DNA from: Ktedonobacterales bacterium
GTDB taxonomy: Bacteria > Chloroflexota > Ktedonobacteria > Ktedonobacterales > JADMIN01
DNA: 64,000 nucleotides
Direction of reading: 5' to 3'
Assembly: GCA_036391685.1 (NCBI GenBank)
Contig: DASVZK010000033.1
Coordinates: forward strand, 22,701-86,700
In this document: in pieces, positions 969 through 15,637 of the stretch
Position numbering within the stretch: the stretch's first letter is position 1
How the letters are laid out: each line of letters starts with the position of its first letter
Program-made: the position numbers and the translations under genes
Notes under the pieces: model-generated
Databases searched by the model: none
Seen by the model: only the letters and a program-made list of their open reading frames with translations
Told to the model about the DNA's origin: nothing

Positions 969-977
969 GCGCGCCGC

Positions 978-1664: not shown

Positions 1665-1719
1665 CTCGCTGATCTCCGCGCTGGACCCATGCGGCCCGCG
1701 CAGGACGCCGCACCGCGCG

Positions 1720-2526
1720 TCATGACGCGGGCGCTTTGGCGCGCAGCCACGCCTCCACGCTCGATGCGACCTCTTCCCAGCCCGGCTGCGCGATCAGCCA
1801 GTGAGTGCGGCCGGGAAACTCGCGGAAGTCGGGAGCGTTCGCCTGGTCGCGTGGATATTTGCGCCATGTTGCCCTGACCATCGTCGCCGGGACGATGTGG
1901 TCCGCCGCCCCGGCGACGATCAGTAGCGGGGCGCGCCGGGGATTGGCGAAGTCGATGCGCGCCGGGCTGTGCGCGCTCAGCGCCGAGAGCGCATTCTGGA
2001 AGAAGACGCGCCCTGACTCCGGTACGACATAGTCGCGAAAGGCGCGCGCCTGCGCGTCCGGCGGCAGGGTATGGACGAAGGCGTAGGCGAACTCCGGCTG
2101 CGTCCAGTGGAAGACCTTCGACCAGCCGCCGGGCGTGATGATGACGCGCAGCAGCGAGCGGGTAGTGGTGGGGTAGAGGGCAGCGATGATTCCGCGTGGT
2201 GGCGCCGGATCGAGCGCGACGCCCGCGGCTCCCAGCCCGCGATCGAGCAGGACTTGCGCGACGAGGCCGCCGAAGGAGTGGCCGATGATGAGCGGCGGCA
2301 TTGGCAGCGCGCGGATGATTCCCTCGAAGTGGTCCGCGATCTCTCCAAGCCCCAGGCGACCCAGGCGCGGGTCTGGAAGTGTATTGAGCTCCTCGACCGA
2401 GCGGTCATGATATGGCCAGGCGGGCGCGAGGCAGTTGTACCCGCGCGCCGTAAAATAGCTCAGGAACGGGTCCCAACACTTGGGTGTCATCCAGGCGCCG
2501 TGAATAAAAACAACCGGGCGGCTCAT
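1720..2526 (-). CDS. alpha/beta-fold hydrolase
   Basis: 268 aa. N-terminal VVFIHGAW and the nucleophile elbow GHSFGG are typical of alpha/beta hydrolases. Confidence 0.8.
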   Translation of the reverse strand: MSRPVVFIHGAWMTPKCWDPFLSYFTARGYNCLAPAWPYHDRSVEELNTLPDPRLGRLGLGEIADHFEGIIRALPMPPLIIGHSFGGLVAQVLLDRGLGAAGVALDPAPPRGIIAALYPTTTRSLLRVIITPGGWSKVFHWTQPEFAYAFVHTLPPDAQARAFRDYVVPESGRVFFQNALSALSAHSPARIDFANPRRAPLLIVAGAADHIVPATMVRATWRKYPRDQANAPDFREFPGRTHWLIAQPGWEEVASSVEAWLRAKAPAS

Positions 2527-2854
2527 TGTCCCTCCCTCTGGGCGGCGCGGATGCGTCGCCCAGCGATGTTTGTAGCATATTCTCCCATCGATTACACGCT
2601 ACGCGGCCGCGGTCGGCAGGGAAGTTGATGGTGATGGCGCTACCTACCGGCGCTCGCGCGCTGGACAAGCGGGCCGCGCGCGGCTATCATGGAAACAGAC
2701 GATGGAAAGACTACGGTCCCGCCAGGAAGCCCACTGAGTTCCCCTCTCGTGTAGCGCAATCCCCCAGTGATAGCGGCGTTCTTCGCATTGAGTGGCTTCG
2801 CGCGCTGGCCGGCGCTGTCGCCGCGCCAGGTGAGCGATAGAGAGGACCATCGTT

Positions 2855-4255
2855 ATGAGGCATCCCTTGCGCTGGCTCCTGGTCGCGGCGCTGATCGCCG
2901 CGCTGGGCAGTCTCACGCTGAGCGCGCGTGTCGCGCACGCGGCTGGAAGCTGCCCCGGCGTAGAGAGCAATGGTGTTTGCACGGTGACGGGAACGAGTCT
3001 GGGCGCGGCGTATTTGCTTGAAGTCCCTGACTCCTGGAATGGCGCGCTGGCGCTCTATAGCCATGGGTATGTCGCGCCAGGATCACCCAACCCCGCGCGC
3101 GATGCGGGTGACCCGGCGACCCGTGGGTGGCTGCTGGGCCACGGCTACGCGCTGGCGGGCTCGTCGTACAGCACGACCGGCTGGGCGCTGCAGCAGGCGT
3201 TCGCGGACCAGATGGACGTGCTCAGCATCTTCACGTCGGACTTCAGCAAGCCCACGCGCACGATCGCCTGGGGGCACTCGCTCGGTGGCATTATCACCGC
3301 CGGTCTGGTGCAACTCAACCCCGGAACATTCGACGCCGCGCTGCCGATGTGCGGCGTGGTGGCGGGCGGCATTGGCACCTGGAACGCCGCGCTGGATAGC
3401 CAGTTCGCCTTCAATCTGCTGGTGGCGGGCGGCGCGCTCAGCGTTGTCAATATCACCAACCCCGGCCTAAACCTGCACAATGCCGAAGTGGCGCTCGCCG
3501 CCGCGCAGGCCACCCCACAGGGCCGCGCGCGCATCGCGTTGGCGGGCGCGCTCGACGATCTGCCCGGCTGGTTTGACTCCGCCTCGCCAGAGCCCGCTCC
3601 CACCGACTACGCCACCCAGGAAGCCAACCAATACCTGTGGGACGCCAACGTGGACTTCCCCTTCGTCTGGGCGCTGCGCGCCGAACTGGAGGCCCGCGCC
3701 GGTGGCAATCCGTCCTGGAACGTGGGCGTGAATTATAACGTCCAGTTCTCACATTCCGTGGACCAGGCGGAGGTCGAGGCGCTCTACGCGCAGGCTGGCC
3801 TCAACCTCAGCGCCGACCTGGCGACGTTGAACGCCGCGCCGCGCATCGCGCCCGACACAGGCGCCGTGCAGTACCTGAACACCTACCTCTCGTTCAACGG
3901 CCAGATCTCCATCCCGATCTTGACCATGCACACCGCCGGCGATGGTCTGGTGCTGAACGAGCAGGAGAGCTCCTACGCCGCCGTTGTGCGCTCGCAGGGC
4001 AATAACAGCCTGCTGCGCCAGGTCTTCGTGCACCGCGCCGGCCACTGCGCCTTCACTCCCGCTGAGACGATCACCGCCTTCCAGACGCTGATCAACCGGC
4101 TGGACACTGGGGTGTGGGACGGTTCGACGAACCCGGATACGATGAACGCCGCCGCCGCCGCGCTCGGCGCCTACAATGTCGCCCCGCCGTCGTTCATGGA
4201 CTACCATCCCGCGCAGTTCCTGCGCCCCTTCACTGCCTACAGCAGCGCGCCATAG
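2855..4255 (+). CDS. secreted alpha/beta-hydrolase-like protein
   Basis: 466 aa. N-terminal signal peptide (LLVAALIAALGSLTLSARVAHA) and a GHSLGG nucleophile-elbow motif. GAGAGG lies upstream of the ATG. Confidence 0.7.
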   Translation: MRHPLRWLLVAALIAALGSLTLSARVAHAAGSCPGVESNGVCTVTGTSLGAAYLLEVPDSWNGALALYSHGYVAPGSPNPARDAGDPATRGWLLGHGYALAGSSYSTTGWALQQAFADQMDVLSIFTSDFSKPTRTIAWGHSLGGIITAGLVQLNPGTFDAALPMCGVVAGGIGTWNAALDSQFAFNLLVAGGALSVVNITNPGLNLHNAEVALAAAQATPQGRARIALAGALDDLPGWFDSASPEPAPTDYATQEANQYLWDANVDFPFVWALRAELEARAGGNPSWNVGVNYNVQFSHSVDQAEVEALYAQAGLNLSADLATLNAAPRIAPDTGAVQYLNTYLSFNGQISIPILTMHTAGDGLVLNEQESSYAAVVRSQGNNSLLRQVFVHRAGHCAFTPAETITAFQTLINRLDTGVWDGSTNPDTMNAAAAALGAYNVAPPSFMDYHPAQFLRPFTAYSSAP

Positions 4256-4472
4256 CTGGCGCCCGGCTTGCGGCGCTGGGGGACATACGGCCCACGACCG
4301 CATCTCCCCCGGCGCGTTTTCTTGCGACTGTAGTAGACCACAATGAATCCCCGACGCGAGAGGCGGCGCATTAGTCAGGAGATTTGCCAGTTCAGCCTCA
4401 CGTTTGTTAGCATGATGCGCGTGAGTCACGGGCGCGAACAGTGGGGACGCCCGCGCCGGGAAGGATAGCCGC

Positions 4473-5147
4473 ATGCGCCAGAACGGACCCACCCTCCCAG
4501 GGCATGATTGGAATGATCAGGGACCCGAAGCGGGTTCGCCGTTGGAACCATATTCATCCGGCCCGGCGCCGATCTGGCCGGATGCGCGAGCGCGCCGCGC
4601 GTTCTTCACCGAGTCCACCCAGGAGCCTCGAGGCTATGTCAGCGCCACGCTGTTCGCCGTGAGCGTGGGCGCGAATGTGGCGCTGCTAATCGGCCTGATC
4701 GGCCTGATTCTGCTGAGCTACTCGGGTGTGTTTCCGCCGGGCGGCGCGAGCCGGCTCGCGCCGGGCACGGCCCTGTCCCCGACTGGCAGCCCTACGCTCA
4801 CTGTGACACCGGCCCCCAGCCCGACCGCTGGCTCTTCTGGCTGGCTGCAGGTGTCGCCGGCGAGCGTGCGGCTGGGCTGCAACGGCTCCAAGCAGACGCA
4901 ATATGTCGTTCTGCGGAATACCGGGCCGAACCAGGTGTCATGGCAGGCCCAGTTGTCGGGCTCCGGCGATCAGGCCGGCGTGTCGGTCGACCCGCACGAT
5001 GGTACGCTCGACTCTGGCCAGAGCGTATCGATCCAGGTGCAAAACACGACACAGTCCAGCGCGCAGCAGGGCGTCATCCAGTTCGCCGCCTCGTCCGAGG
5101 ACGCCGGCGCGCCCGCCAGTGTCACGTATAACGCCGCGGGCTGTTAG
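4473..5147 (+). CDS. membrane-anchored protein with C-terminal Ig-like domain (paralog family, see 27214 and 29664)
   Basis: 224 aa with one TM segment (VGANVALLIGLIGLILL) and a Thr/Pro/Ser linker. The C-terminal ~110 aa (LQVSPASVRLGC...VVLRNTGPNQVSWQAQ...AAGC*) resembles the C-termini of the 27214 and 29664 proteins. Start codon uncertain. Confidence 0.6.
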   Translation: MRQNGPTLPGHDWNDQGPEAGSPLEPYSSGPAPIWPDARARRAFFTESTQEPRGYVSATLFAVSVGANVALLIGLIGLILLSYSGVFPPGGASRLAPGTALSPTGSPTLTVTPAPSPTAGSSGWLQVSPASVRLGCNGSKQTQYVVLRNTGPNQVSWQAQLSGSGDQAGVSVDPHDGTLDSGQSVSIQVQNTTQSSAQQGVIQFAASSEDAGAPASVTYNAAGC

Positions 5148-5186
5148 CGCGCGCGCCACCAGTCGTCGCTGGTTATTCATCACGCC

Positions 5187-5252
5187 CCGCGCGCGACGAC
5201 GATGTCATGCTTCGCCGCCCACTGGGCGAGGTCCTGGCGCTGGATGGCGGCG
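5187..5252 (-). pseudogene. displaced remnant of the VWA gene 3' end (direct-repeat copy)
   Basis: 66 nt matches 6039-6104 at 64 of 66 positions by hand alignment (offset 852 bp). Read on the minus strand it encodes AAIQRQDLAQWAAKHDIVVARGA*, versus AAIQRQDLTQWATKHDIVVARGEEAG* at the end of the intact VWA gene. Confidence 0.8.
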
Positions 5253-5287
5253 CGGCGCTGCATGTGTAGCGCAAGAATTTGAACTGG

Positions 5288-5722
5288 TTACGGCGCCGTC
5301 ATCCAGCCTGCGAAGGGATAGCGATGTTGCTGGAGTAGGTTCGCGCGTATGGTGATGCGCTGTGGCTCGTTGAAACGAAGCAGTATCTCGGTAGCGCGTC
5401 CAATCGGCGTGAGTGGATCGATGCGCGCGCCATCCCATCGAAAGTGGTCTTGCCACCGATCTGCGCGTGGATGATAGAGGCGCGTGACGGCGCCACTTAT
5501 GTGGTCAACTGAGGCGATATCTGAACCTTTGCTGTGATTGCAGGCGTAACAGGCGTAGGCGAGGTTATCGAGTTGCGTCTGACCACCATGTTTGGTGGCG
5601 ATGATGTGATCGGGCTGATGCGACACAAGCGCTACGTCATCGGGTAAACCGCAATACTCGCAACACTGACGCGCGCGAGCCACGACTTGTTTGCGTAGCG
5701 CGGGACTTACGCGCTCACTCAT
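5288..5722 (-). CDS. HNH endonuclease
   Basis: 144 aa. Contains CEYCG...DHIIATKHGG...NLAYACYACNHSKG, the HNH Cys/His motif set. The stop of the upstream small ORF overlaps its start by 4 nt. Confidence 0.85.
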   Translation of the reverse strand: MSERVSPALRKQVVARARQCCEYCGLPDDVALVSHQPDHIIATKHGGQTQLDNLAYACYACNHSKGSDIASVDHISGAVTRLYHPRADRWQDHFRWDGARIDPLTPIGRATEILLRFNEPQRITIRANLLQQHRYPFAGWMTAP

Positions 5723-5964
5723 GTGACCGAGCGCGGGACTTGCGCGCGAATCAGGGCGACGAGATCGTTGAGGATGAGAAGTTCGTCGAGTTGCCGCTTG
5801 TCCTCTATGCTCAAGGTTCCGTCATCTTCTTTGTCGAGCAGGCGCTCGATCAGTTTCTGTGCGCCTTTGGAGAGATGAAAGCGCGCGATGTCCTCGGGGG
5901 AAGGGCCTCGTGCGAAAAACGTCGCCACTTCCTCTACTGGACTCACTGTGGATGCATGACTCAT
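5719..5964 (-). CDS. small hypothetical protein coupled to the HNH gene
   Basis: The ORF runs up to 6012. The ATG at 5964 follows GGAGG. It is translationally coupled to the HNH gene by a 4-nt overlap. No family recognised. Confidence 0.5.
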   Translation of the reverse strand: MSHASTVSPVEEVATFFARGPSPEDIARFHLSKGAQKLIERLLDKEDDGTLSIEDKRQLDELLILNDLVALIRAQVPRSVT

Positions 5965-6023
5965 GGTCTGTTTGGCGCCTCCATCGTCATATGAGCGTCC
6001 TACCAGCATCATAGCACAGCCGT

Positions 6024-7235
6024 TCAGCCTGCTTCCTCGCCGCGCGCGACGACGATGTCATGCTTCGTCGCCCACTGGGTGAGGTCCTGGCGCTGGATGG
6101 CGGCGGCCATCAGGTCGGGGAAGAGGTCGGGCGTACAGGCGAAAGAGGGGACACCAAGGGCGGCCAGCGCGGCCGCGTGCTCGCCATGGTAGCCTGGCGC
6201 GCCGTGGTCGCTGAGCGCCAGTAGGCAGACCATCTGCGCGCCGCTGGCGACGATTTCCGCCGCGCGGCGCAACATGCCCTTGGCGTCGCCGCCCTCATAG
6301 AGGTCGGTGATCAGCACGACGATGGTTTGTGGCGGGCGCGTGATGAGCTGCTGGCAATAGGTTAGCGCGCGGTTGATGTCGGTACCGCCGCCAAGCTGCG
6401 TGCCGAAGAGCAGGTCAACAGGGTCCTGCAGGTCTTCGGTCAGGTCTACAATGGTGGTATCGAAGACCACCATGCGCGTGGAGACGGCGCGCAGGCTGGC
6501 CAGCACGGCGCCGAAAACGCCGCTATAGACCACCGAGGTGGCCATCGAGCCGCTCTGGTCCACGCAAAGGATAATTTCGCGCAGTGAGGAGCGCTTGCGC
6601 CCGTGGCCGACCAGCTTCTCGGCGATGATCGTCTTCAGGCTGGGCTGGTAGTTCTTGAGATTGACGCGGATGGTGCGGTCCCAGTCCAGCTCGCTGGGGC
6701 GCGGGCGGTTGGTGCGCGTGGCGCGACTGAGGCTGCCGCGCACCGCCTGGACCATCGCGCTCGCCAGTTTGCGCTCCAGCTCCTCGACCACCCGCCGCAC
6801 GACCTGCCGCGCGGTGTCTTTGGTCTTCTCAGGCAGGACACGGCTGAGCGAGAGCAGCGTGGCGACCAAATGGACGTCGGGCTCGACCTCAGCCAGCATC
6901 TCCGGCTCCAGCAGCATCTGGGTCAGGTTCAGGCGATCGAGGGCGTCGCGCTGCATGACGCGCACGGTGGAGCTGGGGAAGTAGGAGCGGATGTCGCCCA
7001 GCCAGCGCGCGACGTTAGGCGAGGAGCCGCCTAGCCCGGCGGAGCGCCCGCTATCATACAGCGCCGCCAGCGCGCGATCCATACCCAGATCGAAGTCGCT
7101 CAAGTCTCCCGCGCCCCGCCCTTTGCGGGATTGTCCCGCGGCCTGGGCGTCCGATTCAGCGCCTAGGACTAGCCGCCAGCGGCGCAGCCGCTCGGCTTCG
7201 GCCGGGGATAGGGGAGATGTAACGCGCTCGCTCAT
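6024..7235 (-). CDS. VWA (von Willebrand factor A) domain protein, CoxE-like
   Basis: 403 aa. MIDAS motif DQSGSM (DxSxS) in ILCVDQSGSMATS, followed by GGGTDI. Its start overlaps the stop of the upstream gene by 4 nt. Confidence 0.85.
   Translation of the reverse strand: MSERVTSPLSPAEAERLRRWRLVLGAESDAQAAGQSRKGRGAGDLSDFDLGMDRALAALYDSGRSAGLGGSSPNVARWLGDIRSYFPSSTVRVMQRDALDRLNLTQMLLEPEMLAEVEPDVHLVATLLSLSRVLPEKTKDTARQVVRRVVEELERKLASAMVQAVRGSLSRATRTNRPRPSELDWDRTIRVNLKNYQPSLKTIIAEKLVGHGRKRSSLREIILCVDQSGSMATSVVYSGVFGAVLASLRAVSTRMVVFDTTIVDLTEDLQDPVDLLFGTQLGGGTDINRALTYCQQLITRPPQTIVVLITDLYEGGDAKGMLRRAAEIVASGAQMVCLLALSDHGAPGYHGEHAAALAALGVPSFACTPDLFPDLMAAAIQRQDLTQWATKHDIVVARGEEAG
6039..6104 (-). repeat. 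in-gene copy of the 66-bp direct repeat bounding the HNH cassette
   Basis: Partner of 5187-5252, with two mismatches (6067/5215 and 6079/5227). Confidence 0.85.
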
Positions 7236-9556
7236 GCGGGGCCTCCTCCAAGAAGCTGCGCCAGGACGGGCAGAACCAGCGCCGCCCGCGCCTCATCCAC
7301 CGCGACCGCGACGTCCGCCGCGCCGGGCCGCCTCGCGCCGCCAGAGCGCAACTCACGGACCATGTCGCCCATCGCGCGGCGCTCGGGCGGCTGGAAGCCG
7401 GAGAAAGTCCGGCGCAGCAGCGGCAGCAGGGCGATGAACGTCTCGGGCGATTGCTCGACCAGCCAGTCGTCCAGCGCCAGCCAGAGGCCGTCCTGCAGCA
7501 GCAGCGTCAGCGCCGGGCCGCGCACGACGCCATCGACCCACGCCGCGGCCTCCGGCGCGGGGACAGCGGGCGAGAGCGCCAGCCCGGCCAGCCGCCGTAG
7601 CCCCTCGCCATCCAGCGTGCGCAGCTCCAAAAGCAGCCGCGCACAGCGCCCGCGCACGAGGGGGTGAACGCCGTCGCGAGTCGTCAGCGCGCGTAGCGTG
7701 GTCACCCACTCCGCGCGCTGCCCGGCGTCATCCAGCAGCGCCACACTGTCGTGCGCGGCGCCAATGGATTCCACCATCGTGGTGGCGGCGTCATCGTCAA
7801 GCGCGAGGCAGGCGTTGGGCAGCGCGATCAGCGCGCGCTCAAAGAGCGCGTCGTAGACCGGGCGCACCTCGCCGGCCCGCGCGCCGCGCACGTTGCTGTA
7901 ACGCGCAATGCGCGCCAGCGGCGGTAGCGCGTTGAGCAGGTGGTGGGCGTCTGTCGCGGCGGCGGCTTGCGCGTGGACGCGCTCCAGGACCCCCGCGACA
8001 CCGTCAGGCAGCCCAGCGAGCATCACGGCGTCTAGCAGCTCGGACAACTCGGGCAAGTCGCTGGCCTCGTCAGCGCGGGCCGTGGCGCGGGCGGTGGCGG
8101 CGCGCTCGATGGTGTTGCCCCAGATGCTGGCCTCGATCAGCGCGACGGCGAACTCTACCTGCCACTGGACCTGCCACAGTTCATGGAACGTCCCGGCTGC
8201 CAGCCGGTAGCCGCGCTGCGGCTTGCCCCACGGTACGCCGAGCAGCGCCAGGCGCCGCAGCAGGTGGCTGCGAGCCAGCGCGCTCTCTTCGCGCAAGTCG
8301 AGGTCGAGGGTCTTGAATGCGGTGGATGGTGGGAAGCGCAGGCGTTTCTGTTGCGCCGCCAGGTCGCGGGCCAGCGGGACAGTCGGCGTGTCCTCAGGGA
8401 CCGCGCCCATGCGTTCGCCGATCTCCAGCTTGTCGCGGATGAGCGTCATGCGCGCGGCCTCGCCGTGGCAGAGGACGGTCTGTGTCGCCTCATGCAGCTC
8501 GGTCAGGCCGGGCATTGGCAGGTCGCGCAGGGCGGCCAGCGCGCCAACCAGCCGCACGGCCTCGATGACGCTGGCGGAGGAGATATCCAGGCCCTCGGCG
8601 CGCAACGTCTGCGCCGCGCGCGTCAGCCAGCGGGCGGGGGCGCCATCCGGCGCGTCCCAGAGGTACTCATACCAGCCGGGCGAGGTGATGCCCGCGCCGT
8701 AGCCGCCCCGATAGGCCAGCCGTGAGTTCGTCCAGGGAACCCACGTCGCGGCGACTTTCATCTGCTTGAGGCCTTTGAGCAGCGCCGCGTCGGCGGCCTG
8801 CGCGCCCTTCGCGTCGAGGTCGCGCAGGGCGGGCGAATGCCAGGCGCCGGTGACGACGGCGATGCGCTGGTAGCCCTCGCGCGCGGCGGCGCGGATGCTT
8901 TGCCGCATGTGCGCCTCGCGCCGCGCCTCGCGCTCGTCGCGTGGTGACGCTCCGTCGCGCAGCGCGGTCATCGCTTCCAGGATGGACTCGAAAAAGCCGG
9001 AAATGTCGTGGCGCTGCTCGATCTGGCGCTCCCACCAGAGCTCATGGTCGTCGTAGCCCGCGGCCTGCGCCAGCAGCGCCAGCGGGTCGTCCCGCGGGTC
9101 AGGCGTCTGCGGCGTGGCCTGTCCAGGGTTTGGCGCCTGGACGGGAGCCACCGCGCCGGCCGCTTGCGCTGGCTCATCGTCGGGCTCAGCATCCGCCGGC
9201 GCTTCCACCGCGCCGTTGGACTCTGACTCTTCTGGCCCCTGGGCAAACTGCATGGCCTGGGGCAGGTCTATGAAGCGGGCGGGAACGCTGTGGGCGTGGG
9301 CGTAGGTCAGCGCTTGCCATTCCGGGGAGAAGCGCGCCAGTGGGAAGTAGACAGCGCACGCGGGCGCCTCGGGCGCGTAGACCAGCAACGCGACCGGCGG
9401 CGTCATCTCGGCGCGGGCGAGAAGCGGCAGGACTTCGGCGGCGTCGGGTGGGCCTTCGACCAGGACGATATCCGGGTCGAGTTGCGCCAGCGCCAGGGCC
9501 AGCGCCCGCGCGCAGCCGGGGCCATGGTGGCGGACGCCGAAGAACGTGACGGTCAT
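7232..9556 (-). CDS. large uncharacterised protein (DUF5682-like; name recalled from annotations of syntenic clusters, not verified)
   Basis: 774 aa with normal composition. The start lies 2 nt after the AAA+ gene stop, and the stop overlaps the VWA start. Confidence 0.7.
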   Translation of the reverse strand: MTVTFFGVRHHGPGCARALALALAQLDPDIVLVEGPPDAAEVLPLLARAEMTPPVALLVYAPEAPACAVYFPLARFSPEWQALTYAHAHSVPARFIDLPQAMQFAQGPEESESNGAVEAPADAEPDDEPAQAAGAVAPVQAPNPGQATPQTPDPRDDPLALLAQAAGYDDHELWWERQIEQRHDISGFFESILEAMTALRDGASPRDEREARREAHMRQSIRAAAREGYQRIAVVTGAWHSPALRDLDAKGAQAADAALLKGLKQMKVAATWVPWTNSRLAYRGGYGAGITSPGWYEYLWDAPDGAPARWLTRAAQTLRAEGLDISSASVIEAVRLVGALAALRDLPMPGLTELHEATQTVLCHGEAARMTLIRDKLEIGERMGAVPEDTPTVPLARDLAAQQKRLRFPPSTAFKTLDLDLREESALARSHLLRRLALLGVPWGKPQRGYRLAAGTFHELWQVQWQVEFAVALIEASIWGNTIERAATARATARADEASDLPELSELLDAVMLAGLPDGVAGVLERVHAQAAAATDAHHLLNALPPLARIARYSNVRGARAGEVRPVYDALFERALIALPNACLALDDDAATTMVESIGAAHDSVALLDDAGQRAEWVTTLRALTTRDGVHPLVRGRCARLLLELRTLDGEGLRRLAGLALSPAVPAPEAAAWVDGVVRGPALTLLLQDGLWLALDDWLVEQSPETFIALLPLLRRTFSGFQPPERRAMGDMVRELRSGGARRPGAADVAVAVDEARAALVLPVLAQLLGGGPA

Positions 9557-9558
9557 GG

Positions 9559-11910
9559 CTAGAGAACCTCATGGCAGGCGCGGTAGAGATCTTTCCAGCC
9601 TTCGCGCTCCTTGGCAACCGTTTGCAGGTATTCCAGCCAGACGACACGGTCTTGCACAGGATCCTTGACGATGGCGCCGGTGAGGCTGGCGGCCAGATCG
9701 TCCGCTTTGAGCGCGCCGTCGCCGTAGTAGCCGGCCATCGCCAGCCCGGCGCCCATCACTGAGATCGCCTCAGCGGTGGAGAGCGTACCGCTGGGGGTCT
9801 TCAGCTTGGTCTTGCCGTCCAGCGTCATACCAGAGCGCAATTCGCGGAAGACGGTGACGATACGGCGGATCTCGTCCAGCGCGGGCTTCTCGGCGGGCAG
9901 CTCCAGCGCCTGGCCCAACTGGGCGACGCGCCGCTCGACGATTTCGACCTCCTCGTCCATCGTCTCCGGCACGGGCAAGATGACGGTATTGAAGCGCCGC
10001 AGCAGGGCGCTGGTGAGCTCATTGACGCCCTTGTCGCGGTTGTTGGCGGTGGCGATGAGGTTGAAGCCCCTGCTCGCCTGGACCTCACTATCCAGCTCAG
10101 GGATAGGCAGTGTCTTCTCGGAGAGGATGGTGATCAGCGCATCCTGCACCTCGGCTGGCATGCGTGTCAGTTCCTCGATGCGCCCGATCCTGCCCTCACG
10201 CATCGCGCGCATGATCGGGCTGACGACCAGCGCGGTCTCCGACGGCCCCTCGACCAGCAGCCGCGCGTAGTTCCAGCCGTAGCGGATCGCCGCCTCATCG
10301 GTCCCCGCCGTCCCCTGCACCAGCAGCGTGGACTCGCCGCAGATCGCCGCCGCCAGATGCTCGGCCACCCAGCTGTTGTGAATGATGAAGTCATTCGCTA
10401 CGAAATTGTGAGTATCGGCCATGCTCAAGTCATAGACTTGGTGTTCACCGATTGGTTCAATTGCGACGATGACATCCCAATAGATGTCGCTCGCGGCAAG
10501 TTGGCGAAGTTCCTCACTATTCGCAAGTCGCGCAAGGCGAAGTAAGCGTGAACGTGAAATGCTCTGATGTGGGCGTACTGAGGCGCTTGCTGCAAGTTTG
10601 CGCTGATTTATGTCGGCCTGCAACAAGGTCCCCACACTGGCAAATCCTGCGGTTACAGCGGCGCTTTGGAGACGCGACCATATTTGCTGTGGGATAGTAT
10701 CGAGATTGGGATTAACAGTTCCCTTGAAAGACGCCAAAAAAGCGTTCGCTTCTTGGATATACTTCCGCCCTAAGAGTCCAATCTCATTGAGGAACGTGCG
10801 ACACTGGTCAGTTCCATGAATGAACAGGCGGTAGTGCCCGCTCGATAGACGGCGGACACGCGCGTTGATGCCAAAGCGCAATAGTAAGTGTTGCACGCCC
10901 TGTATCAGCCGCCTCGATTTGCTGGCGTAGTCAATGGTGGCCTGTTTCTTCGGCGTCTCACGGATGTGAAGGAACCCATCGCCGCTGAACAGGCGATTGA
11001 GGAAGAGCGCAACCTGCCGTTTGGGCAGCGTAAAAACCAAATCGGGAATGAATTTGGTCCCTGAGTTAGTCCCCATCTGACCCAGATCGCGCAGCCATTG
11101 TGTGCAGGGATTCGTGGTCTTTCCGCCGCGCATGCCTCCCGAAACGCTGCACGTCCTACCGTCAGGATACCAATGCGCCTGGAGGCTGGGGAAAGCTTCA
11201 ATAACCGCCTTACTGAAATCCTCTTTCATCTCAGGATTAGTGTTAGAGAAGTACGGTAGCTCTTGAGTGAGCGTACCTTCAGCAATGAGGTGCCCAAGCA
11301 ACTTGACGTGCGCGTCACTTGTTTCTGCTGTCCCAAAATATGGCAACGCACGAGGAAGGGCGATTCTGCTGCCCACTTCGAGTTTTTCAAGTGGTTGCCA
11401 ACCATCCATTGTGAGGAATGGATGGTTGAGCGTCACCTCGATTTCTCGCCCTAGATGTGTCGTAACGCGATAGCATGGGCGAACGCCGTTATCCACGTAG
11501 TCGCTCGGCGCTTGCGACTTGAGATGATACTCACCATCTAGTGTAGCCACCTCAACATCCCGCGTTTTGCATGCTTCAGCAACAGTTACACGCTTCCCCG
11601 TCCGCGTATCCAGAATCAGCATGTCGTGTTTGACACATTTCGCTGTCCCGGGCAGGCCATACAGCAGCAGGGCGCGGTCAGTGGCCAGCGTGGCGATGGC
11701 GATCTCCATCAACCGGGCCGAGCCGATGTATTTGGGCGAGACCGCGAAGCCATTGGGTAGCGTGCCGCCGAGCAGGTAGGTGCGCACGGCCCAGGGCGAG
11801 AGCTTCCAGTTCGGCGGGCGCTGGCGGTCGTCGGCTTTGGCCAGCTCGGCCAGTTCCTCAGCGTACTGCGTCTCGGCGTGCTGGCGGAGGACGTTTGGGA
11901 GAGTGGTCAT
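9559..11910 (-). CDS. MoxR/AAA_5-class AAA+ ATPase interrupted by an intein
   Basis: 783 aa. Walker A is split as LLYGLPGTAK | intein | SWVAEH. A Walker B-like RIGRIEELTRMP and a MoxR-like C-terminal region follow. The exteins total 362 aa. Confidence 0.9.
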   Translation of the reverse strand: MTTLPNVLRQHAETQYAEELAELAKADDRQRPPNWKLSPWAVRTYLLGGTLPNGFAVSPKYIGSARLMEIAIATLATDRALLLYGLPGTAKCVKHDMLILDTRTGKRVTVAEACKTRDVEVATLDGEYHLKSQAPSDYVDNGVRPCYRVTTHLGREIEVTLNHPFLTMDGWQPLEKLEVGSRIALPRALPYFGTAETSDAHVKLLGHLIAEGTLTQELPYFSNTNPEMKEDFSKAVIEAFPSLQAHWYPDGRTCSVSGGMRGGKTTNPCTQWLRDLGQMGTNSGTKFIPDLVFTLPKRQVALFLNRLFSGDGFLHIRETPKKQATIDYASKSRRLIQGVQHLLLRFGINARVRRLSSGHYRLFIHGTDQCRTFLNEIGLLGRKYIQEANAFLASFKGTVNPNLDTIPQQIWSRLQSAAVTAGFASVGTLLQADINQRKLAASASVRPHQSISRSRLLRLARLANSEELRQLAASDIYWDVIVAIEPIGEHQVYDLSMADTHNFVANDFIIHNSWVAEHLAAAICGESTLLVQGTAGTDEAAIRYGWNYARLLVEGPSETALVVSPIMRAMREGRIGRIEELTRMPAEVQDALITILSEKTLPIPELDSEVQASRGFNLIATANNRDKGVNELTSALLRRFNTVILPVPETMDEEVEIVERRVAQLGQALELPAEKPALDEIRRIVTVFRELRSGMTLDGKTKLKTPSGTLSTAEAISVMGAGLAMAGYYGDGALKADDLAASLTGAIVKDPVQDRVVWLEYLQTVAKEREGWKDLYRACHEVL
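10375..11637 (-). mobile_element. intein with LAGLIDADG homing-endonuclease domain (421 aa)
   Basis: Begins with Cys (TGT, 11637-11635, CVKHDMLILD) and has block B TLNHPF. Two LAGLIDADG motifs are present (LLGHLIAEGT, FLNRLFSGDGF). It ends VANDFIIHN (AAC, 10377-10375) followed by +1 Ser (AGC, 10374-10372). The DNA is visibly more AT-rich than the exteins. Confidence 0.9.
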
Positions 11911-13484
11911 AGCGGCAACACTTTCACTAGGCGCTCGCGCAGGCGGATGGTCTCGGCGAACGCGTTCAGCTGGTTCTTGAAGCGGCTACTGTAGGGGTTC
12001 TGGGCTTCGGGAACGGCGATGGGTTCGCGCGCCACCGTGAACGCGGTTTCCGGCATCGCCAGCGCCGCGTCGTTGAGCGTGGTATCCCATGGGTCGGTGG
12101 CGCGCGCCTTGGTGTCAGTGACGACCGCGAAGGCGCGCAGGCCGTCGAGGTAAGCCTGGGCCACGGCGACGCTCCACGGGCGCGGCAAGAGGTCCAGCGC
12201 CGCCCGAAGACCCATATCCGCGTATGTGTCAGGCGCGGCGAGCACCCGCAGGACGAATGCGTCCAATGTGGCGGGCGGCAGCAGCGGCGCGAGCGGTCGG
12301 CAATAGCTGGCGCGGTCCGCGTCCATCTGCGCAATCTCTTTGTCAGGCATTGCGAGCAGGGCGTCCCATAGGGCGAGCGCCCAGTCGCGAGCCTGAAAGC
12401 TGGTTGTCGCGGTACTCCAGCTTTCCAGGATGCTGGCGCGCCATTTCGATGCGGCGCTGGCGGCGATAAGCGCGGCGGGCGCCACGCCAAAGCGCTCTGT
12501 CCAGTGCGCTGGCGGTACGCGCTCAAGGAGCGCCGCCAGCCAGAACGCGCGCTGGCCATTCTTGTTCGAGATGGATTGGGTAGGCAGACCGTCGCGCGCC
12601 CAGCTGCCGTCTATCGCGGCGGGTGGGTCGGCGTCGAGCGCCGCGCCATCGAAGGTGATGGCGGCGTTGGCGCGGTCGCGGAGACGCAGCGCCAGCGCCG
12701 ATGCCGGAAGATCGGTGAGCAGGCGCGCGGCGACGGCGCGCACGCGCTCGCCACGGTCGTCTAGCGCTGCCTCTAACAGCGGCTCATCGTCGGGCGCGAG
12801 ACCGGTGGCGAAGGTTTCGAGCATGCTGGCGCGGGTCTCAGCCTTCTCCTTCTTCCAGACGCCCTCGAGCCAATCGCGCGCCAGCGCCGGGTCTTGAGTG
12901 CGCAGGCGACCCAGCAGCGCGATCCGCTGCCTTGTCGTTCCCTCCTGCCAGATGGTCTCGGCGTCGGGCGGCAGGGCATCGCGCACGCCGGGCAGCGTGC
13001 GCTCCAGCAGCCACGACCATTCGGGATTGTGGCTCGCCAGCCAGCGTCCGCGCTCTCCCGCCAGCGGCCCCAGCGCGGCGCGCAGCTCGTTGGTGGCGAA
13101 GGCGCGCGCCTTCTTGAGGGTGAGTGGCAGCAGCGTGGGTGGCAGCAACTCGCCGCGCCGCTCCATCCGCGCGCAGGCTTCCAGCAGCAGGTCGTCGCGC
13201 CCGGTGACGACGAGGCCTTCGATCAGCGCGGCGGCGTCGGGCGGGCAGATTGGGCGCTCCTCCGTCTTCGCGGCTTCCAGCGGCGCGACGCCACGCGCGG
13301 GCAGGCGTCCCGCCGCGTGGTAGATGGCGGATTCAGCCGCGCGCAGCAGCAGATCTCGCCCCGCGTCCTCGCCCGGCAGCGGAATGCCATCGACTGGCGC
13401 GCCGGTGGTGGGAGATGCGTTTGGGCTGTGCGCCAGACCGGCCAGCGCCTGCGCGGTCAGCGAATTGGGGCGGGTCGCCGTCAT
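11907..13484 (-). CDS. uncharacterised helical protein (DUF5691-like; name recalled, not verified)
   Basis: The ORF extends to 13727, but the ATG at 13484 forms an ATGA overlap with the SWIM gene stop. 525 aa, Leu/Ala-rich and predicted helical. Its stop overlaps the AAA+ start by 4 nt. Confidence 0.65.
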   Translation of the reverse strand: MTATRPNSLTAQALAGLAHSPNASPTTGAPVDGIPLPGEDAGRDLLLRAAESAIYHAAGRLPARGVAPLEAAKTEERPICPPDAAALIEGLVVTGRDDLLLEACARMERRGELLPPTLLPLTLKKARAFATNELRAALGPLAGERGRWLASHNPEWSWLLERTLPGVRDALPPDAETIWQEGTTRQRIALLGRLRTQDPALARDWLEGVWKKEKAETRASMLETFATGLAPDDEPLLEAALDDRGERVRAVAARLLTDLPASALALRLRDRANAAITFDGAALDADPPAAIDGSWARDGLPTQSISNKNGQRAFWLAALLERVPPAHWTERFGVAPAALIAASAASKWRASILESWSTATTSFQARDWALALWDALLAMPDKEIAQMDADRASYCRPLAPLLPPATLDAFVLRVLAAPDTYADMGLRAALDLLPRPWSVAVAQAYLDGLRAFAVVTDTKARATDPWDTTLNDAALAMPETAFTVAREPIAVPEAQNPYSSRFKNQLNAFAETIRLRERLVKVLPL

Positions 13485-14878
13485 GCGCGCGCCTCCGTCA
13501 GCGGGGTATATGTCCCGACGGCGATGACGCCTAGCGGCAGCAGCGTCTCGCCATTCCACTCCACCATCACATCTACCGGCTGGCCCCCAGAGACGGCCAG
13601 CAGCCGCCAATGCTCGCGCGCGACCAGCGGCAGCGCGTCGCCATCGGCGTCTAGCAGCCGCCAGTCGCCCTCCGGCGTCAGCGTCGGCGTCACTCCGCGC
13701 AACACGCCGCCCAGGCGCCCAAGCCATGGATCACACGCCAACCCTCCGGCATAGGCCTGAAGAAGCCCTTCGACCCGCGTGTAACTTGCCGGGTCCCAGT
13801 TCGCGAAGGCGGGCTTCGCGGCCGCCGGGCCCGTAGCCGCGGATTTATCCGCCTGGCCGGACGTGACGATTTTGGCGCGCAGAGGGTATGCGCCGGGCCA
13901 GTAGCGCAGGTCGGCGGTCAGGCTAGAGCCAGGGAGATAGACCTCAGCGAAGGTCCCGAAGGAGGGCGAGTACTGCATGATGACGGCGGGACGCTGGCTG
14001 CGCTCGCCCAGCAGCCATGTGCGCTGGACATGGATGCGCTCGCTGTCGTCCACCCACTGCCCCAGGACCAGCCAGCCGTCGCTGACCAGTTCTCCGCGCG
14101 CGTCTACCTCCTCGGCGCTCAGCGCCCATCCGGCCACCTGGCGCACCGTCTCGCGCAGCGCCGGACTGAGCGAGTCCAGACACCTCCAGGCCTGAGAGAG
14201 CAGGGCAAGCTTGCCAAGCTCGGCCAGCAACCGTTCTGGCCAGTCCGCTGCGGAGCCGGGGATGCCTGCCATGCGGCGCAGGCGGTTGGCCGCGCCGGGG
14301 ACCTGCGCGTCCACCATGCGCGCGGCCTGCGCTTCCCAGAAGCTGGCGCCTTTGACCTCCAGCCCGGCGATGCCGTTGCGCATCAGGTCGCTCAGCCAGA
14401 GATCGAGATTGTCGAAGCCGCCCGCCATCAGCCGCTGGCGCTTCTCGATGCGCCTGGACGCGACCTTGTCGGCGGCGGCCCGCGCGGGGGCGTCATCCGT
14501 GGCGTCGGCGGGCTGGACGGGCGTGTCAGTGTTGGGCGCGGCCGCCTTGAGCGCGGCCTTGGCGGCGCGCTTGGTCAGCCAGCCGCTCATCCACTCTGGC
14601 GGCTGCGTGGTGGGAACAGTGTCATCGGCGGCGAGAAGGAGCAGGCCGATACCGTGCTTGCAGGGGAATTTGCGACTGGGACAGCTACAGGCGACGGTCA
14701 GGTTGGCGAGATCTATCTTGACCTGATACAGCGCGCTACCCAGGCATTCGCCCCAGAGCCCGGCGTCATCACGTCCCACGCTTTTCCAGTGGCGCGGCGC
14801 GGCCAGCTTGCGGCCCGCCTGCGCGGACGCGGTATCGGGCGTGAGCGCGAGGACCTGCTCAGCGGATATGGCTGGCAT
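13481..14878 (-). CDS. SWIM zinc-finger protein
   Basis: CxCx6CxH signature (ACSCPSRKFPCKHG) near the N-terminus. The ATG at 14878 is preceded by GGAAGGAGA. The track ORF extension to 15085 lacks coding character. Confidence 0.8.
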   Translation of the reverse strand: MPAISAEQVLALTPDTASAQAGRKLAAPRHWKSVGRDDAGLWGECLGSALYQVKIDLANLTVACSCPSRKFPCKHGIGLLLLAADDTVPTTQPPEWMSGWLTKRAAKAALKAAAPNTDTPVQPADATDDAPARAAADKVASRRIEKRQRLMAGGFDNLDLWLSDLMRNGIAGLEVKGASFWEAQAARMVDAQVPGAANRLRRMAGIPGSAADWPERLLAELGKLALLSQAWRCLDSLSPALRETVRQVAGWALSAEEVDARGELVSDGWLVLGQWVDDSERIHVQRTWLLGERSQRPAVIMQYSPSFGTFAEVYLPGSSLTADLRYWPGAYPLRAKIVTSGQADKSAATGPAAAKPAFANWDPASYTRVEGLLQAYAGGLACDPWLGRLGGVLRGVTPTLTPEGDWRLLDADGDALPLVAREHWRLLAVSGGQPVDVMVEWNGETLLPLGVIAVGTYTPLTEARA

Positions 14879-15178
14879 GCGCGGCGTCTCCTTCCACCAG
14901 AGGGGATGGCGCTGTAGAACCGTCGAAATCCTGTTCTCCGCCAGTATGCCGTAGCCGGAACCCCATGTATAGCCCCCATTGCCGGGGCCGCCTGCAAAGG
15001 ATGGCGGAGCGCGAATTGCATGGTCGGTGGTATGCGATACAATAGCGTGATGGGCGCTGGCCCTCACCCCTTGACGCTGTCCCACGGAGAGAGGGGAGTC
15101 AGAGTGGCCAGTACGCCTCGCGTGGCCATGAAGCTGGCCCCGCTGGATAATCCAATCGCCACAGGGAGAAACCCATAC

Positions 15179-15637
15179 ATGGCCACGTCAAAGTCAGCCG
15201 GGAAGGGACGCGTTCCAGGCGTCTACGGCAAGGAAGAGATCGCCACCAACCGGCTGGAGCCGTGGCCCAATCCCTATACGGGCCGCGATTACATCATTCA
15301 CTTCGAGATTCCGGAGTTTACCTGCGTCTGCCCGCGCTCTGGCTTCCCCGACTTCGCCACGATCGTCATTGACTACGCGCCCGGGCCGAGCGTGGTCGAG
15401 TTGAAGAGCCTCAAGCTCTACATCAACGGCTACCGCGACCGCGCGATCAGCCATGAAGGCGCGACCAACGTCATCCTCGATGACCTGCTGGCGGCGCTCA
15501 GCCCGAAGTGGATGCGGGTGGTGGGTGAGTTCAACGTGCGCGGCAACATCAAGACGGTAGTGACCGCCGAGCATTTCGCGCCGGACTACAGCGGCCCGCG
15601 CCCGGGCTATGAGCGCCCGGCTTACCGCGGCATCTGA
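15179..15637 (+). CDS. queF: NADPH-dependent 7-cyano-7-deazaguanine (preQ0) reductase
   Basis: Unimodular QueF motifs: catalytic Cys in [13 protein letters not shown] and the QueF motif ELKSLKLYI. The ATG at 15179 follows GGGAGA. Confidence 0.9.

Follow-up and report, generated by a model that had tools for sequence, protein, structure and literature searches.

Five open reading frames occupy the minus strand at positions 6024-14878 of the window, the whole 64,000-nucleotide stretch of DNA analysed here. From first to last they encode a 465-residue SWIM zinc-finger protein (13481..14878; Pfam SWIM 2e-5), a 525-residue DUF5691 protein (11907..13484; Pfam DUF5691 5e-108), a 783-residue, intein-split precursor of a MoxR AAA+ ATPase of the YehL subfamily (9559..11910; AAA_5 1.5e-30), a 774-residue DUF5682 protein orthologous to E. 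coli YehM (7232..9556; Pfam DUF5682 4e-250) and a 403-residue VWA_CoxE protein orthologous to YehP (6024..7235; Pfam VWA_CoxE 1.3e-49). Judged by the E-values obtained, none of the Pfam assignments can be a chance match. Read from the DNA, the first, second and fourth junctions are ATGA overlaps (13484-13481, 11910-11907 and 7235-7232), whilst at the third a TAG codon is followed by a 2-nt gap (cc, 9558-9557) and an ATG at 9556. A Shine-Dalgarno sequence (GGAAGGAG, 14895-14888) lies 9 nt 5' of the ATG of gene 1 (14878). An Rfam search found no riboswitch or other element upstream of the operon, and no promoter or terminator signal exceeded chance level. Its neighbours within the window encode QueF, alpha/beta hydrolases, a peptidase S9-like protein and unknowns. 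An earlier note on this DNA had given the same five genes, overlaps and gap, the 525- and 774-residue lengths, and the SWIM, MoxR/AAA_5 and MIDAS-bearing VWA domains, and in these respects the DNA, Pfam and the motif residues bear it out. It went on to claim stoichiometric co-expression, which over-reads the overlaps: NorQ and NorD, the one MoxR/VWA pair with such data among those compared here, have a ratio of 6:1 (bioRxiv 10.1101/2022.11.16.516607).

The ATPase gene carries a 421-residue intein (10375..11637, minus strand; residues 92-512 of the precursor; Intein_splicing 6.5e-20, LAGLIDADG_3 2e-16) between K91 and S92 of the Walker A motif (GLPGTAK|C...HN|S). Its hallmarks are complete, comprising C92, a block B TLNH (TxxH), HN512 followed by S513, a LAGLIDADG domain and an in-frame position within a conserved host motif. 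The intein N- and C-terminal models TIGR01445 and TIGR01443 both match, and a model search revealed similarity to the intein part of intein-containing DnaB (1.3e-92). On these features the element belongs to the inteins with a LAGLIDADG homing endonuclease, and splicing is predicted. Its removal restores the Walker A motif GLPGTAK|S within a 362-residue protein that is colinear with YehL and matches AAA_5 at 3.5e-37. The GC content of the intein is 0.526 against 0.663 for the exteins. The same intein is carried by one 76%-identical relative and is missing from all 80 genome loci compared. The ATPase motifs (Walker A G85..K91-S92 after splicing, Walker B E158 E159, N202 and R217 R218) are invariant in orthologs, as are the VWA family's MIDAS residues (71-73 orthologs across the two). 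Median identity of the ATPase across phyla is 72.6%, and the window protein retains 143 of 144 conserved columns. Chloroflexota ATPases are about 73% identical to those of Bacteroidota or Pseudomonadota, a level which, across such distant phyla, is usually limited to central housekeeping proteins. Sitting in the P-loop, the intein may be regarded as a conditional switch of natural origin for the ATPase; it also marks the site as strongly constrained.

The MIDAS of the VWA protein is complete (D226-x-S228-x-S230, T285 and D311). This subunit has a median identity of 62% and retains 83 of 84 conserved columns in the window; a sequence search of the PDB found no match to it. An analogy with the chelatases (CobN/S/T, BchH/I/D) was considered and dropped, its sole support being an 18-bit match of the VWA protein to a cobaltochelatase model whose cut-off is 779 bits. 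Repeat searches, pairwise alignment and Pfam HNH define a homing-endonuclease cassette (5187..6105, minus strand) at the VWA gene's 3' end. Two 66-nt direct repeats, 97% identical and derived from the VWA 3' end (5187-5252 and 6040-6105), flank a 787-bp insert (5253-6039) in which an 81-residue ORF (5719-5964; no match in a PHROGs search) shares an ATGA overlap with a 144-residue HNH ORF (5288-5722; Pfam HNH 3e-12, PHROGs HNH endonuclease 1e-10). The GC content of the cassette is 0.573. The end of the VWA gene is now supplied by the upstream repeat copy (...VVARGEEAG*), whilst the old end (...VVARGA*) is preserved in the downstream copy. Of the double invasion by selfish elements described in the earlier note, the intein and the HNH cassette are both real, but the cassette sits at the end of the last gene, which it regenerates, and leaves the operon uninterrupted. 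A close relative lacks the HNH cassette. The intein, the HNH gene and the accompanying 81-residue ORF each occur only once in the window, and none of them recurs in the compared loci.

The DUF5682 protein is modelled by AlphaFold2 (pLDDT 77) as an N-terminal alpha/beta domain (about residues 1-275) with a parallel beta-sheet core, followed by a middle domain and, from about 468 to 770, an alpha-solenoid at the C-terminus. The N-terminal domain includes a disordered acidic loop (109-151); the median Asp plus Glu content of this loop is 0.23 against 0.13 protein-wide, and its net charge is -5 or lower in 55 of 74 sequences. The invariant residues are R9, H10, H11, E34, E79, D97, R213, E214 and H240. 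The succession G-x-x-H, E, R-x-x-x-M and G-A-x-H resembles, in order and spacing, that of the TIKI/TraB/PrgY/GumN/ChaN/erythromycin-esterase superfamily: the His-to-Glu and Arg-to-His distances are 24 and 27 residues in DUF5682 and 28 and 29 in RRSP, and the former is again 28 in Bcr135, RRSP and Bcr135 being enzymes of the TIKI superfamily (PMC6254334). DUF5682 departs from that superfamily in the canonical 2His/2Glu set, whose first Glu is missing, and its domain has an acidic insert of ~45 residues and is joined to about 500 more. Pfam TraB_PrgY_gumN is matched by two of 62 DUF5682 members (E 0.09), and comparison of the N-terminal domain with TIKI/TraB profiles gave non-significant E-values of 0.13 (hhalign) and 0.03 (hmmsearch). 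Neither the full sequence nor an N-terminal-domain profile found a match in the PDB. In whole-chain Foldseek searches of the PDB, solenoid matches from the C-terminal half dominate. In BFVD, no match exceeds the probability of 0.99 reached by a protein of the TraB family (TM 0.44 by target, E 0.067), which is by name among the few non-repeat proteins in the top ranks. The motif spacing, the weak Pfam matches and the Foldseek TraB match together give an even chance of the N-terminal domain being a TIKI-like hydrolase. Alternatively, the RHHG motif which follows strand 1 could be read as histidine-phosphatase-like.

The SWIM protein contains the zinc finger C64-x-C66-x6-C73-x-H75, with no known domain in the remaining ~380 residues. 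Its median identity across phyla is 37.5%, and it retains all 29 columns conserved at 95% or above among 62 orthologs. DUF5691 is the fastest-evolving subunit, with a median identity of 31%. Its AlphaFold2 model (pLDDT 90.6) is an all-helical solenoid of HEAT/ARM type, for which the best Foldseek matches are PP2A-A, importin-alpha and Integrator (prob 0.97-1.0). Neither protein found a match in sequence searches of the PDB. In four lineages the two share a single ORF.

The locus was compared with 80 genome loci; 61 loci are informative for gene order. The five-gene order is retained in 54 of the 61, spanning about 14 phyla, and thus extends well beyond this genome; the actinomycete string SWIM, DUF5691, AAA, DUF5682 and VWA given in the earlier note is likewise correct. 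In the other seven, one or more partners do not adjoin DUF5682. The four junctions in turn fall within +-20 nt in 52/58, 45/68, 42/73 and 58/70 cases. Comparison of the flanks for shared families found no conserved flanking gene family among the 80 loci. Across all five families the window proteins retain 384 of the 390 columns conserved at 95% or above, and identity to the window declines with taxonomic distance roughly as vertical descent predicts. In E. coli the cluster is core, single-copy and chromosomal (5353 of 5426 genomes). Occurrences on plasmids (37 of 72,556 records) and phages (1 of 50,697) are rare. In Chitinophagaceae a DUF4132 gene is a sixth member of the operon. The conserved order, the tight junctions, the unshared flanks and the SWIM-DUF5691 fusions indicate that the five genes form a functional unit.

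The explanation which best accommodates these data, and which we hold to be slightly more probable than its negation, is that a YehL-type MoxR hexamer with a MIDAS adaptor remodels DUF5682, whilst the SWIM and HEAT-repeat proteins provide specificity. We infer every subunit contact in this scheme. The ATPase precursor would first splice out its P-loop intein, restoring Walker A, and the mature protein would assemble into a MoxR-type hexamer. The VWA protein would sit on this hexamer in the manner of other MoxR/VWA pairs and use its MIDAS metal to grip an acidic residue of the client. The operon partners are the only conserved candidates for that client, and DUF5682 is taken here, tentatively and with somewhat less than even confidence, to be the client or effector. 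Its acidic disordered loop, which is conserved, would be the likely handle for the MIDAS or the pore. Its N-terminal domain would probably be a hydrolase of TIKI/TraB type (peptidase or esterase) with H10/H11, E34, R213 and H240 as the catalytic set, and ATP-driven remodelling would switch on or load this hydrolase. SWIM and the HEAT-repeat DUF5691, which occur fused in four lineages and evolve faster than the other parts, may act as one unit in target recognition or scaffolding.

The same parts could be arranged as an anti-phage or conflict system, in which a MoxR-VWA threshold switch, like that of the ternary MoxR-vWA systems, frees the DUF5682 hydrolase once SWIM-HEAT senses an invader or DNA damage. 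Conserved ATPase and VWA subunits (73% and 62% median identity) would then be coupled to fast-evolving SWIM and DUF5691 (37.5% and 31%), and MoxR-vWA pairs do control effectors in described conflict systems (PMC7159879). Toxin peptidases occur among TIKI-family members (PMC6254334), nuclease-type selfish genes repeatedly invade the operon, and H-NS silences yehL and yehM in E. coli (PMC3686432). There are furthermore the links to DUF4132 and WGR genes, which lie upstream in E. coli, DUF4132 being the sixth gene in Chitinophagaceae; in Deinococcus, DUF4132 and WGR genes are DNA-damage-induced according to one preprint. The distribution, however, gives no support to the conflict system hinted at in the earlier note. 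The module is core, single-copy and chromosomal in E. coli and rare on plasmids and phages, its flanking genes are not common to the loci, and its divergence roughly tracks vertical descent. In PADLOC-DB 2.0 the four non-intein components match no defence model, save for a weak match of the SWIM finger to PDC-S62 (21 bits, confined to the finger); the intein is recognised by models for homing endonucleases. The operon fits no ternary type of MoxR-vWA conflict system out of the four described, and the bpMoxR model scores the ATPase at 19.3 bits, under its cut-off of 27. We consider a conflict system unlikely.

A maturation or cofactor-insertion chaperone of the RavA-ViaA, NorQ-NorD or CoxD-CoxE type, acting on a client encoded elsewhere, is also an improbable account. 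DUF5682, DUF5691 and SWIM would here be non-catalytic, serving as scaffolds or metal carriers and not as the target. Maturation is the best-documented role of MoxR/VWA pairs. Pfam places the VWA protein in the CoxE family, alpha-solenoid scaffolds make up most of two of the three partners, and the His/Glu/Asp residues that cluster invariantly in DUF5682 could bind metal instead of catalysing. The wide, largely vertical, chromosomal distribution would also suit a housekeeping accessory. Yet no conserved candidate client lies nearby in the 80 loci, cox, nor and cbb genes and their like are absent from the flanks, no riboswitch or other Rfam element precedes it, and three dedicated, co-inherited partners are atypical of known chaperone pairs. 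That the five genes are merely adjacent, without joint function, has in its favour only the seven loci with partners missing beside DUF5682, and is effectively refuted: across about 14 phyla the genes keep their order, their strand and their tight junctions amid otherwise unrelated flanks, gene fusions occur, and four of the families are still found together in E. coli.

If the remodelling of DUF5682 by the YehL-type ring is extended to its fullest form, the module would be a hitherto unrecognised, phylum-spanning ATP-gated machine in which MoxR-VWA arms DUF5682, as a TIKI/TraB-like peptidase or esterase, on targets chosen by a fast-evolving SWIM-HEAT sensor, in a stress, DNA-damage or conflict response. 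This is distinctly unlikely; if true, it would establish a new class of response system, whose E. coli ortholog yehLMPQ sat uncharacterised beside yehF and yehHI in the best-studied genome. The window alone adds little to the catalogue, whereas the comparison gives the module an anatomy that can be put to the test. One subunit is built of HEAT repeats, another probably has a TIKI-like catalytic domain whose residues can be named, the MIDAS would have an acidic handle, the SWIM and HEAT proteins occur fused, and a link to DUF4132 recurs.

Among known systems, the MoxR-vWA ternary conflict systems likewise combine a MoxR-vWA pair with dedicated components, some of them fast-evolving (Kaur et al. 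2020). The window, in contrast, lacks VMAP, iSTAND, FtsH and beta-propeller components (Pfam; definitions in PMC7159879), and the patchy distribution of those systems differs from the core, chromosomal one of the YehL-type module. The account of Kaur, Burroughs, Iyer and Aravind makes no mention of SWIM or YehL (PMC7159879). Midasin/Rea1, a eukaryotic AAA+ protein of ribosome assembly, also combines an AAA_5 ring, an acidic (D/E-rich) segment and a MIDAS with large helical-repeat partners. When the spliced ATPase is searched against PDB sequences, the midasin AAA domains score best (3.5e-17), followed by NorQ (7e-9); these are the nearest solved relatives outside YehL and far more distant than YehL itself. 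Midasin is, however, a single chain of roughly 4,900 residues with six fused AAA domains, whilst in the window each part is a protein of its own, and the acidic segment belongs to DUF5682 and does not precede the MIDAS domain.

NorQ/NorD, CbbQ/CbbO, CoxD/CoxE and RavA/ViaA, like the window, combine an AAA_5/MoxR ATPase with a VWA protein that bears a MIDAS, and in the window both the ATPase motifs and the MIDAS are intact. NorQ is among the solved structures nearest to the ATPase, and the VWA protein falls in the CoxE family. The MoxR hexamer of NorQ/NorD takes up a single VWA protein, whose MIDAS is needed for acting on acidic surface residues of the client and not for binding the ring (bioRxiv 10.1101/2022.11.16.516607). 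By analogy, a hexamer, a single VWA protein and a MIDAS directed at an acidic client residue are likely to be common to both. Those pairs adjoin or act on a known enzyme client; the window has three uncharacterised partners only, and it lies neither in nor beside the cox gene cluster that goes with CoxD/CoxE maturation of CO dehydrogenase.

The closest comparison is with E. coli K-12 yehL-yehM-yehP-yehQ, of which the locus is very probably the intact five-gene form, judging by sequence comparison. YehL, YehM, YehP and YehQ are AAA_5, DUF5682, VWA_CoxE and SWIM proteins, respectively. Over 362 of 362 residues, the spliced ATPase and YehL share 42% identity (E 3e-79); the DUF5682 protein is 26% identical to YehM (E 9e-38) and the VWA protein 33% identical to YehP over its full length. 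Full-length YehL similarity, an adjacent YehP-type VWA protein and YehM-type protein, and a SWIM gene in the cluster place the ATPase, very probably, in the YehL subfamily, which was defined in 2006 and is one of seven MoxR subfamilies in the Snider and Houry classification (PMC3893208). Both loci are chromosomal, with genes that overlap or abut and a 362-residue ATPase. They differ in that the E. coli genes are four, their order permuted to ATPase-DUF5682-VWA-SWIM, with WGR and DUF4132 genes (yehF, yehHI) upstream and no intein. E. coli YehL is also far more divergent, at 42% compared with 66-82% among five-gene forms. DUF5691 is absent altogether from E. coli and so is not universally required; proposed relationships of DUF5691 to YehQ or YehI were rejected, direct comparisons detecting no homology. 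The SWIM protein has only the zinc finger in common with YehQ (614 residues), further homology having likewise been sought and rejected. The operon matches no characterised pathway or PADLOC system. In proposing a distinct machine the earlier note missed the orthology to yehLMPQ and the YehL subfamily: the module is already known, though uncharacterised, and is not a new discovery. Searches of the available literature found no functional study of DUF5682, DUF5691, yehL, yehM, yehP or yehQ, nor of DUF4132. YehL is a MoxR subfamily for which these searches gave no function, yet its module belongs to the core genome of E. coli and occurs in at least about 14 bacterial phyla, and yehLMPQ is the obvious experimental entry point.

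The five-gene operon at 6024-14878 is, by sequence, a YehL-subfamily MoxR/VWA operon, of a kind already known but uncharacterised, and this copy carries two lineage-specific selfish insertions. Its five open reading frames (ORFs) all lie on the minus strand, and the closest database relatives of their products are found in Ktedonobacterales (Chloroflexota). Pfam assigns genes 1 to 5 to SWIM (E 2e-5), DUF5691 (E 5e-108), AAA_5 (E 1.5e-30, together with Intein_splicing and LAGLIDADG_3), DUF5682 (E 4e-250) and VWA_CoxE (E 1e-49), exactly the annotation which the earlier note gives for syntenic actinomycete clusters. The tight gene packing described there was likewise read directly from the DNA at every junction. 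ATGA start/stop overlaps on the minus strand join genes 1 and 2 (13484-13481), 2 and 3 (11910-11907) and 4 and 5 (7235-7232), whilst genes 3 and 4 meet at TAG-cc-ATG (9561-9554, minus strand), leaving a 2-nt gap. A ribosome-binding site, GGAAGGAG, lies on the same strand 9 nt 5' of the ATG at 14878. Each protein was aligned with 62-82 orthologs and columns conserved at 95% or more were counted. The window proteins keep 29/29 of these for SWIM, 11/11 for DUF5691, 143/144 for the ATPase, 118/122 for DUF5682 and 83/84 for VWA. Ortholog alignment places among the kept residues all the SWIM ligands (C64, C66, C73, H75), the Walker A, Walker B (E158, E159), N202, R217 and R218 of the ATPase, and the full MIDAS of the VWA protein (D226, S228, S230, T285, D311). 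On these alignments, all five genes are intact.

The arrangement is widely shared. Scanning one genome per species gave at least 590 matches, from which 80 loci in about 14 phyla were kept: Chloroflexota, Actinomycetota, Cyanobacteriota and relatives, Planctomycetota, Acidobacteriota, Myxococcota, Bacteroidota, Pseudomonadota, Desulfobacterota, Deinococcota, Verrucomicrobiota, Bacillota, Armatimonadota and Gemmatimonadota, the last through a locus (L002) added from a separate look-up. All five genes occur in the same order and on the same strand in 54 of the 61 loci with enough flanking sequence, so that the gene order, which the earlier note had proposed to check outside this genome, is indeed kept. 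The exceptions are some cyanobacteria, in which the operon is split, and a few loci without SWIM, DUF5691 or VWA beside DUF5682. Gaps fall within ±20 nt at the four successive junctions in 52/58, 45/68, 42/73 and 58/70 cases, counts which are biased by a preference for starts closest to the preceding stop codon, and three of these junctions commonly show overlaps of the ATGA type. A soft spot lies between the ATPase and DUF5682 genes, with a gap exceeding 100 nt in 19/73 loci. Depending on lineage it holds genes for Uma2, NucS_C/DUF7669, 23S_rRNA_IVP, TPR, or an esterase plus cyclase. Such inserts lie at 9313-9894, 9137-9718, 5317-6078, 9474-9953, 7560-9938 and 7192-9310 of comparison loci L008, L010, L002, L058, L081 and L005, respectively; two are of nuclease type, namely the cyanobacterial Uma2 gene and the NucS_C/DUF7669 gene of Longimicrobium. 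Selfish genes seem to have landed in this operon repeatedly. No flanking gene is conserved across the compared loci.

In four taxa unrelated to one another, from Pseudomonadota, Chloroflexia, Planctomycetota and Actinomycetota, one ORF without internal stops spans both SWIM and DUF5691. These ORFs, found in loci L045 (5961-8756), L051 (5916-8891), L059 (5634-8615) and L070 (6092-8947), would fit a fusion of the genes and direct contact between the two proteins, sequencing frameshifts being a possible alternative source. Across 60 complete loci, the median identity to the corresponding window protein is 72.6% for the ATPase, 62.3% for VWA, 46.4% for DUF5682, 37.5% for SWIM and 31.2% for DUF5691. 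The YehL-type MoxR ATPase evidently has a MIDAS-complete VWA partner, and three co-inherited proteins join the pair, two of the three apparently fused in some lineages.

The first selfish element in the window operon is a 421-aa intein (aa 92-512 of the 783-aa ATPase ORF; nt 10375-11637, minus strand) that splits the Walker A P-loop exactly at K91/S92 (GLPGTAK/S). It begins with Cys, has a block B of TLNH, ends in HN followed by Ser, and carries a LAGLIDADG endonuclease (Pfam LAGLIDADG_3); its GC content is 0.526 versus 0.663 for the exteins. The Walker A of this ATPase exists only after the predicted protein splicing. Among named relatives, the closest is the intein portion of an intein-containing DnaB (NF005852, 1.3e-92), which suggests, short of demonstration, an ectopic move between the P-loops of unrelated ATPases. 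The intein-bearing gene, there of 787 aa, recurs in a metagenomic relative of 76% identity; the intein is found in 0/80 genome loci, all of them more distant than this relative.

The second element, a 787-bp HNH cassette (5253-6039; GC 0.573), lies downstream and comprises an 81-aa ORF, a member of no known family, in ATGA overlap with a gene for a 144-aa HNH endonuclease. Direct-repeat comparison and Pfam delimit the cassette with its flanking repeats at 5187-6105, the 3' end of the VWA gene being repeated on both sides (66 nt, 97% identical). The upstream copy now completes the VWA gene (...ARGEEAG), whilst the former C-terminus (...ARGA) survives in the downstream copy. Since the cassette supplies a replacement for these final 66 nt, the VWA ORF stays complete after insertion, and the element therefore regenerates its target gene without disrupting the operon. 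The earlier note had the operon invaded twice; both elements are real, though the cassette does not interrupt the operon, the VWA ORF being regenerated. Its observations on this region otherwise stand, as does its interpretation for the most part. No second copy of the cassette occurs in the window or the fetched loci. Just past it, on the opposite strand, an ORF at 4473-5147 (+) has weak Ig-like/BACON-type Pfam matches, all below cut-offs. At the other end, a QueF-family gene (7-cyano-7-deazaguanine reductase-like; 15020-15637, +) is transcribed divergently, its start separated by 141 nt from that of the operon. It also neighbours the operon in the 76%-identical relative and is absent beside distant loci; neither a preQ1 nor any other riboswitch was detected.

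DUF5691 is predicted to be an all-helical solenoid (pLDDT 90.6), with structural matches to PP2A A-subunit, importin-alpha and Integrator (probability 0.97-1.0). The DUF5682 model (pLDDT 77) has a predicted N-terminal alpha/beta domain (aa about 1-275), a middle domain and a C-terminal solenoid (aa about 468-770). A predicted disordered loop at aa 109-151 varies from 19 to 141 aa among orthologs and is acidic (D+E 0.23 versus 0.13 protein-wide; net charge of -5 or below in 55/74 sequences). A second, Gly-rich loop at aa 277-303 (nt 8645-8725, minus strand; consensus around SGYGAGVTSPGWY, with invariant G285, Y286, G287, A288, G289, P293 and Y296) ranks with the best-conserved stretches of the protein, yet its AlphaFold pLDDT is below 50, behaviour typical of a segment that would become ordered only upon partner binding. 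The N-terminal domain has invariant R9, H10, H11, E34, E79, D97, E180, R213, E214, M217, R218, G237, A238 and H240. Its motif pattern, G-x-x-H, E, R-E-x-x-M and G-A-x-H, prompted the reading that this domain is TIKI/TraB-like, for which the odds on all the evidence are roughly even. The TIKI superfamily fold is described as a parallel beta-sheet core with a 2His/2Glu set and an Arg (PMC6254334). His-to-Glu and Arg-to-His spacings are 24 and 27 residues in DUF5682, compared with 28 and 29 in RRSP and a His-to-Glu spacing of 28 in Bcr135, both TIKI-superfamily enzymes (PMC6254334). Pfam TraB_PrgY_gumN matches weakly (E 0.09) in 2/62 DUF5682 members. Against viral models, the highest-probability Foldseek match is a Marseillevirus 'TraB family protein' (prob 0.99, E 0.067; TM 0.44 by target length), by name among the few top-ranked matches other than repeat proteins. 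Against the assignment, alignment to a shallow YbaP profile with hhalign reaches E 0.13, and a PDB profile search with the domain found nothing. The RHHG motif might instead be of histidine-phosphatase type.

By analogy with NorQ/NorD, and from its closeness to midasin and NorQ, the YehL-type ATPase would form a hexamer with one VWA bound, an acidic residue of the client would supply the sixth ligand of the MIDAS metal, and ATP hydrolysis would remodel the client. With no conserved external client in the neighbourhood, DUF5682 itself is most simply read as client or effector. The acidic loop of DUF5682 would serve as the handle and the His/Glu/Arg pocket would hold the activity that is switched or loaded, whilst the fast-evolving pair of SWIM protein and predicted HEAT-type DUF5691 may confer specificity. 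That the module is a conflict-type system seems unlikely. The yehLMPQ cluster is present as a single chromosomal copy in 5353/5426 complete E. coli genomes, and DUF5682 occurs in 37/72,556 plasmid records (29 of the 37 non-mobilizable; the top matches are replicons of 0.18-11.9 Mb) and in 1/50,697 phage records. PADLOC has no model for any operon component, and identity to the window proteins declines roughly with taxonomy. Such a distribution speaks against a mobile defence island of the usual kind. A chaperone acting on an unlinked client, rather than on DUF5682, is similarly improbable. Mere adjacency of five genes, with no joint function, is excluded.

Among known systems, the MoxR-vWA ternary conflict systems (PMC7159879) were considered, and the operon is none of the four types. 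In E. coli K-12, yehL (AAA_5, 362 aa), yehM (DUF5682), yehP (VWA_CoxE) and yehQ (SWIM) overlap or abut. One of seven MoxR subfamilies is named after YehL; the paper listing them has experiments on RavA alone (PMC3893208), and the sole other data found on the cluster concern repression of yehL and yehM by H-NS (PMC3686432). DUF5682 and DUF5691 had no mention in the literature searched. Given the yehLMPQ correspondence and the lack of any functional study found, the cluster is a long-known unknown. Just upstream of it (475-7912 of the fetched E. coli region, L083) lie the DUF4132 genes yehH (a pseudogene) and yehI and the WGR gene yehF. Chitinophaga and Niastella have a large DUF4132 (+HEAT) gene within about 8-20 nt of the end of the VWA gene; loci with this arrangement are L046 (13429-16428), L049, L050 and L075. 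According to one preprint, DUF4132 and WGR genes of Deinococcus are under DdrO control; it also cites LexA regulation of MolR. A link of the module to DNA damage through this association is possible; in the window, no DUF4132 or WGR gene lies near the operon. The main value of the window operon is as a pointer to a highly conserved module with an E. coli ortholog and no published function found, whose anatomy as described above opens the way to specific experiments. YehL is 42% identical to the spliced window ATPase across all 362 residues, YehM 26% identical to the DUF5682 protein (E 9e-38) and YehP 33% identical to VWA, whereas YehQ has the zinc finger alone in common with the SWIM protein. 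E. coli lacks DUF5691, which the window operon has; judged from the loci compared, the five-gene form is the commoner, more conserved version of the yehLMPQ-type cluster.
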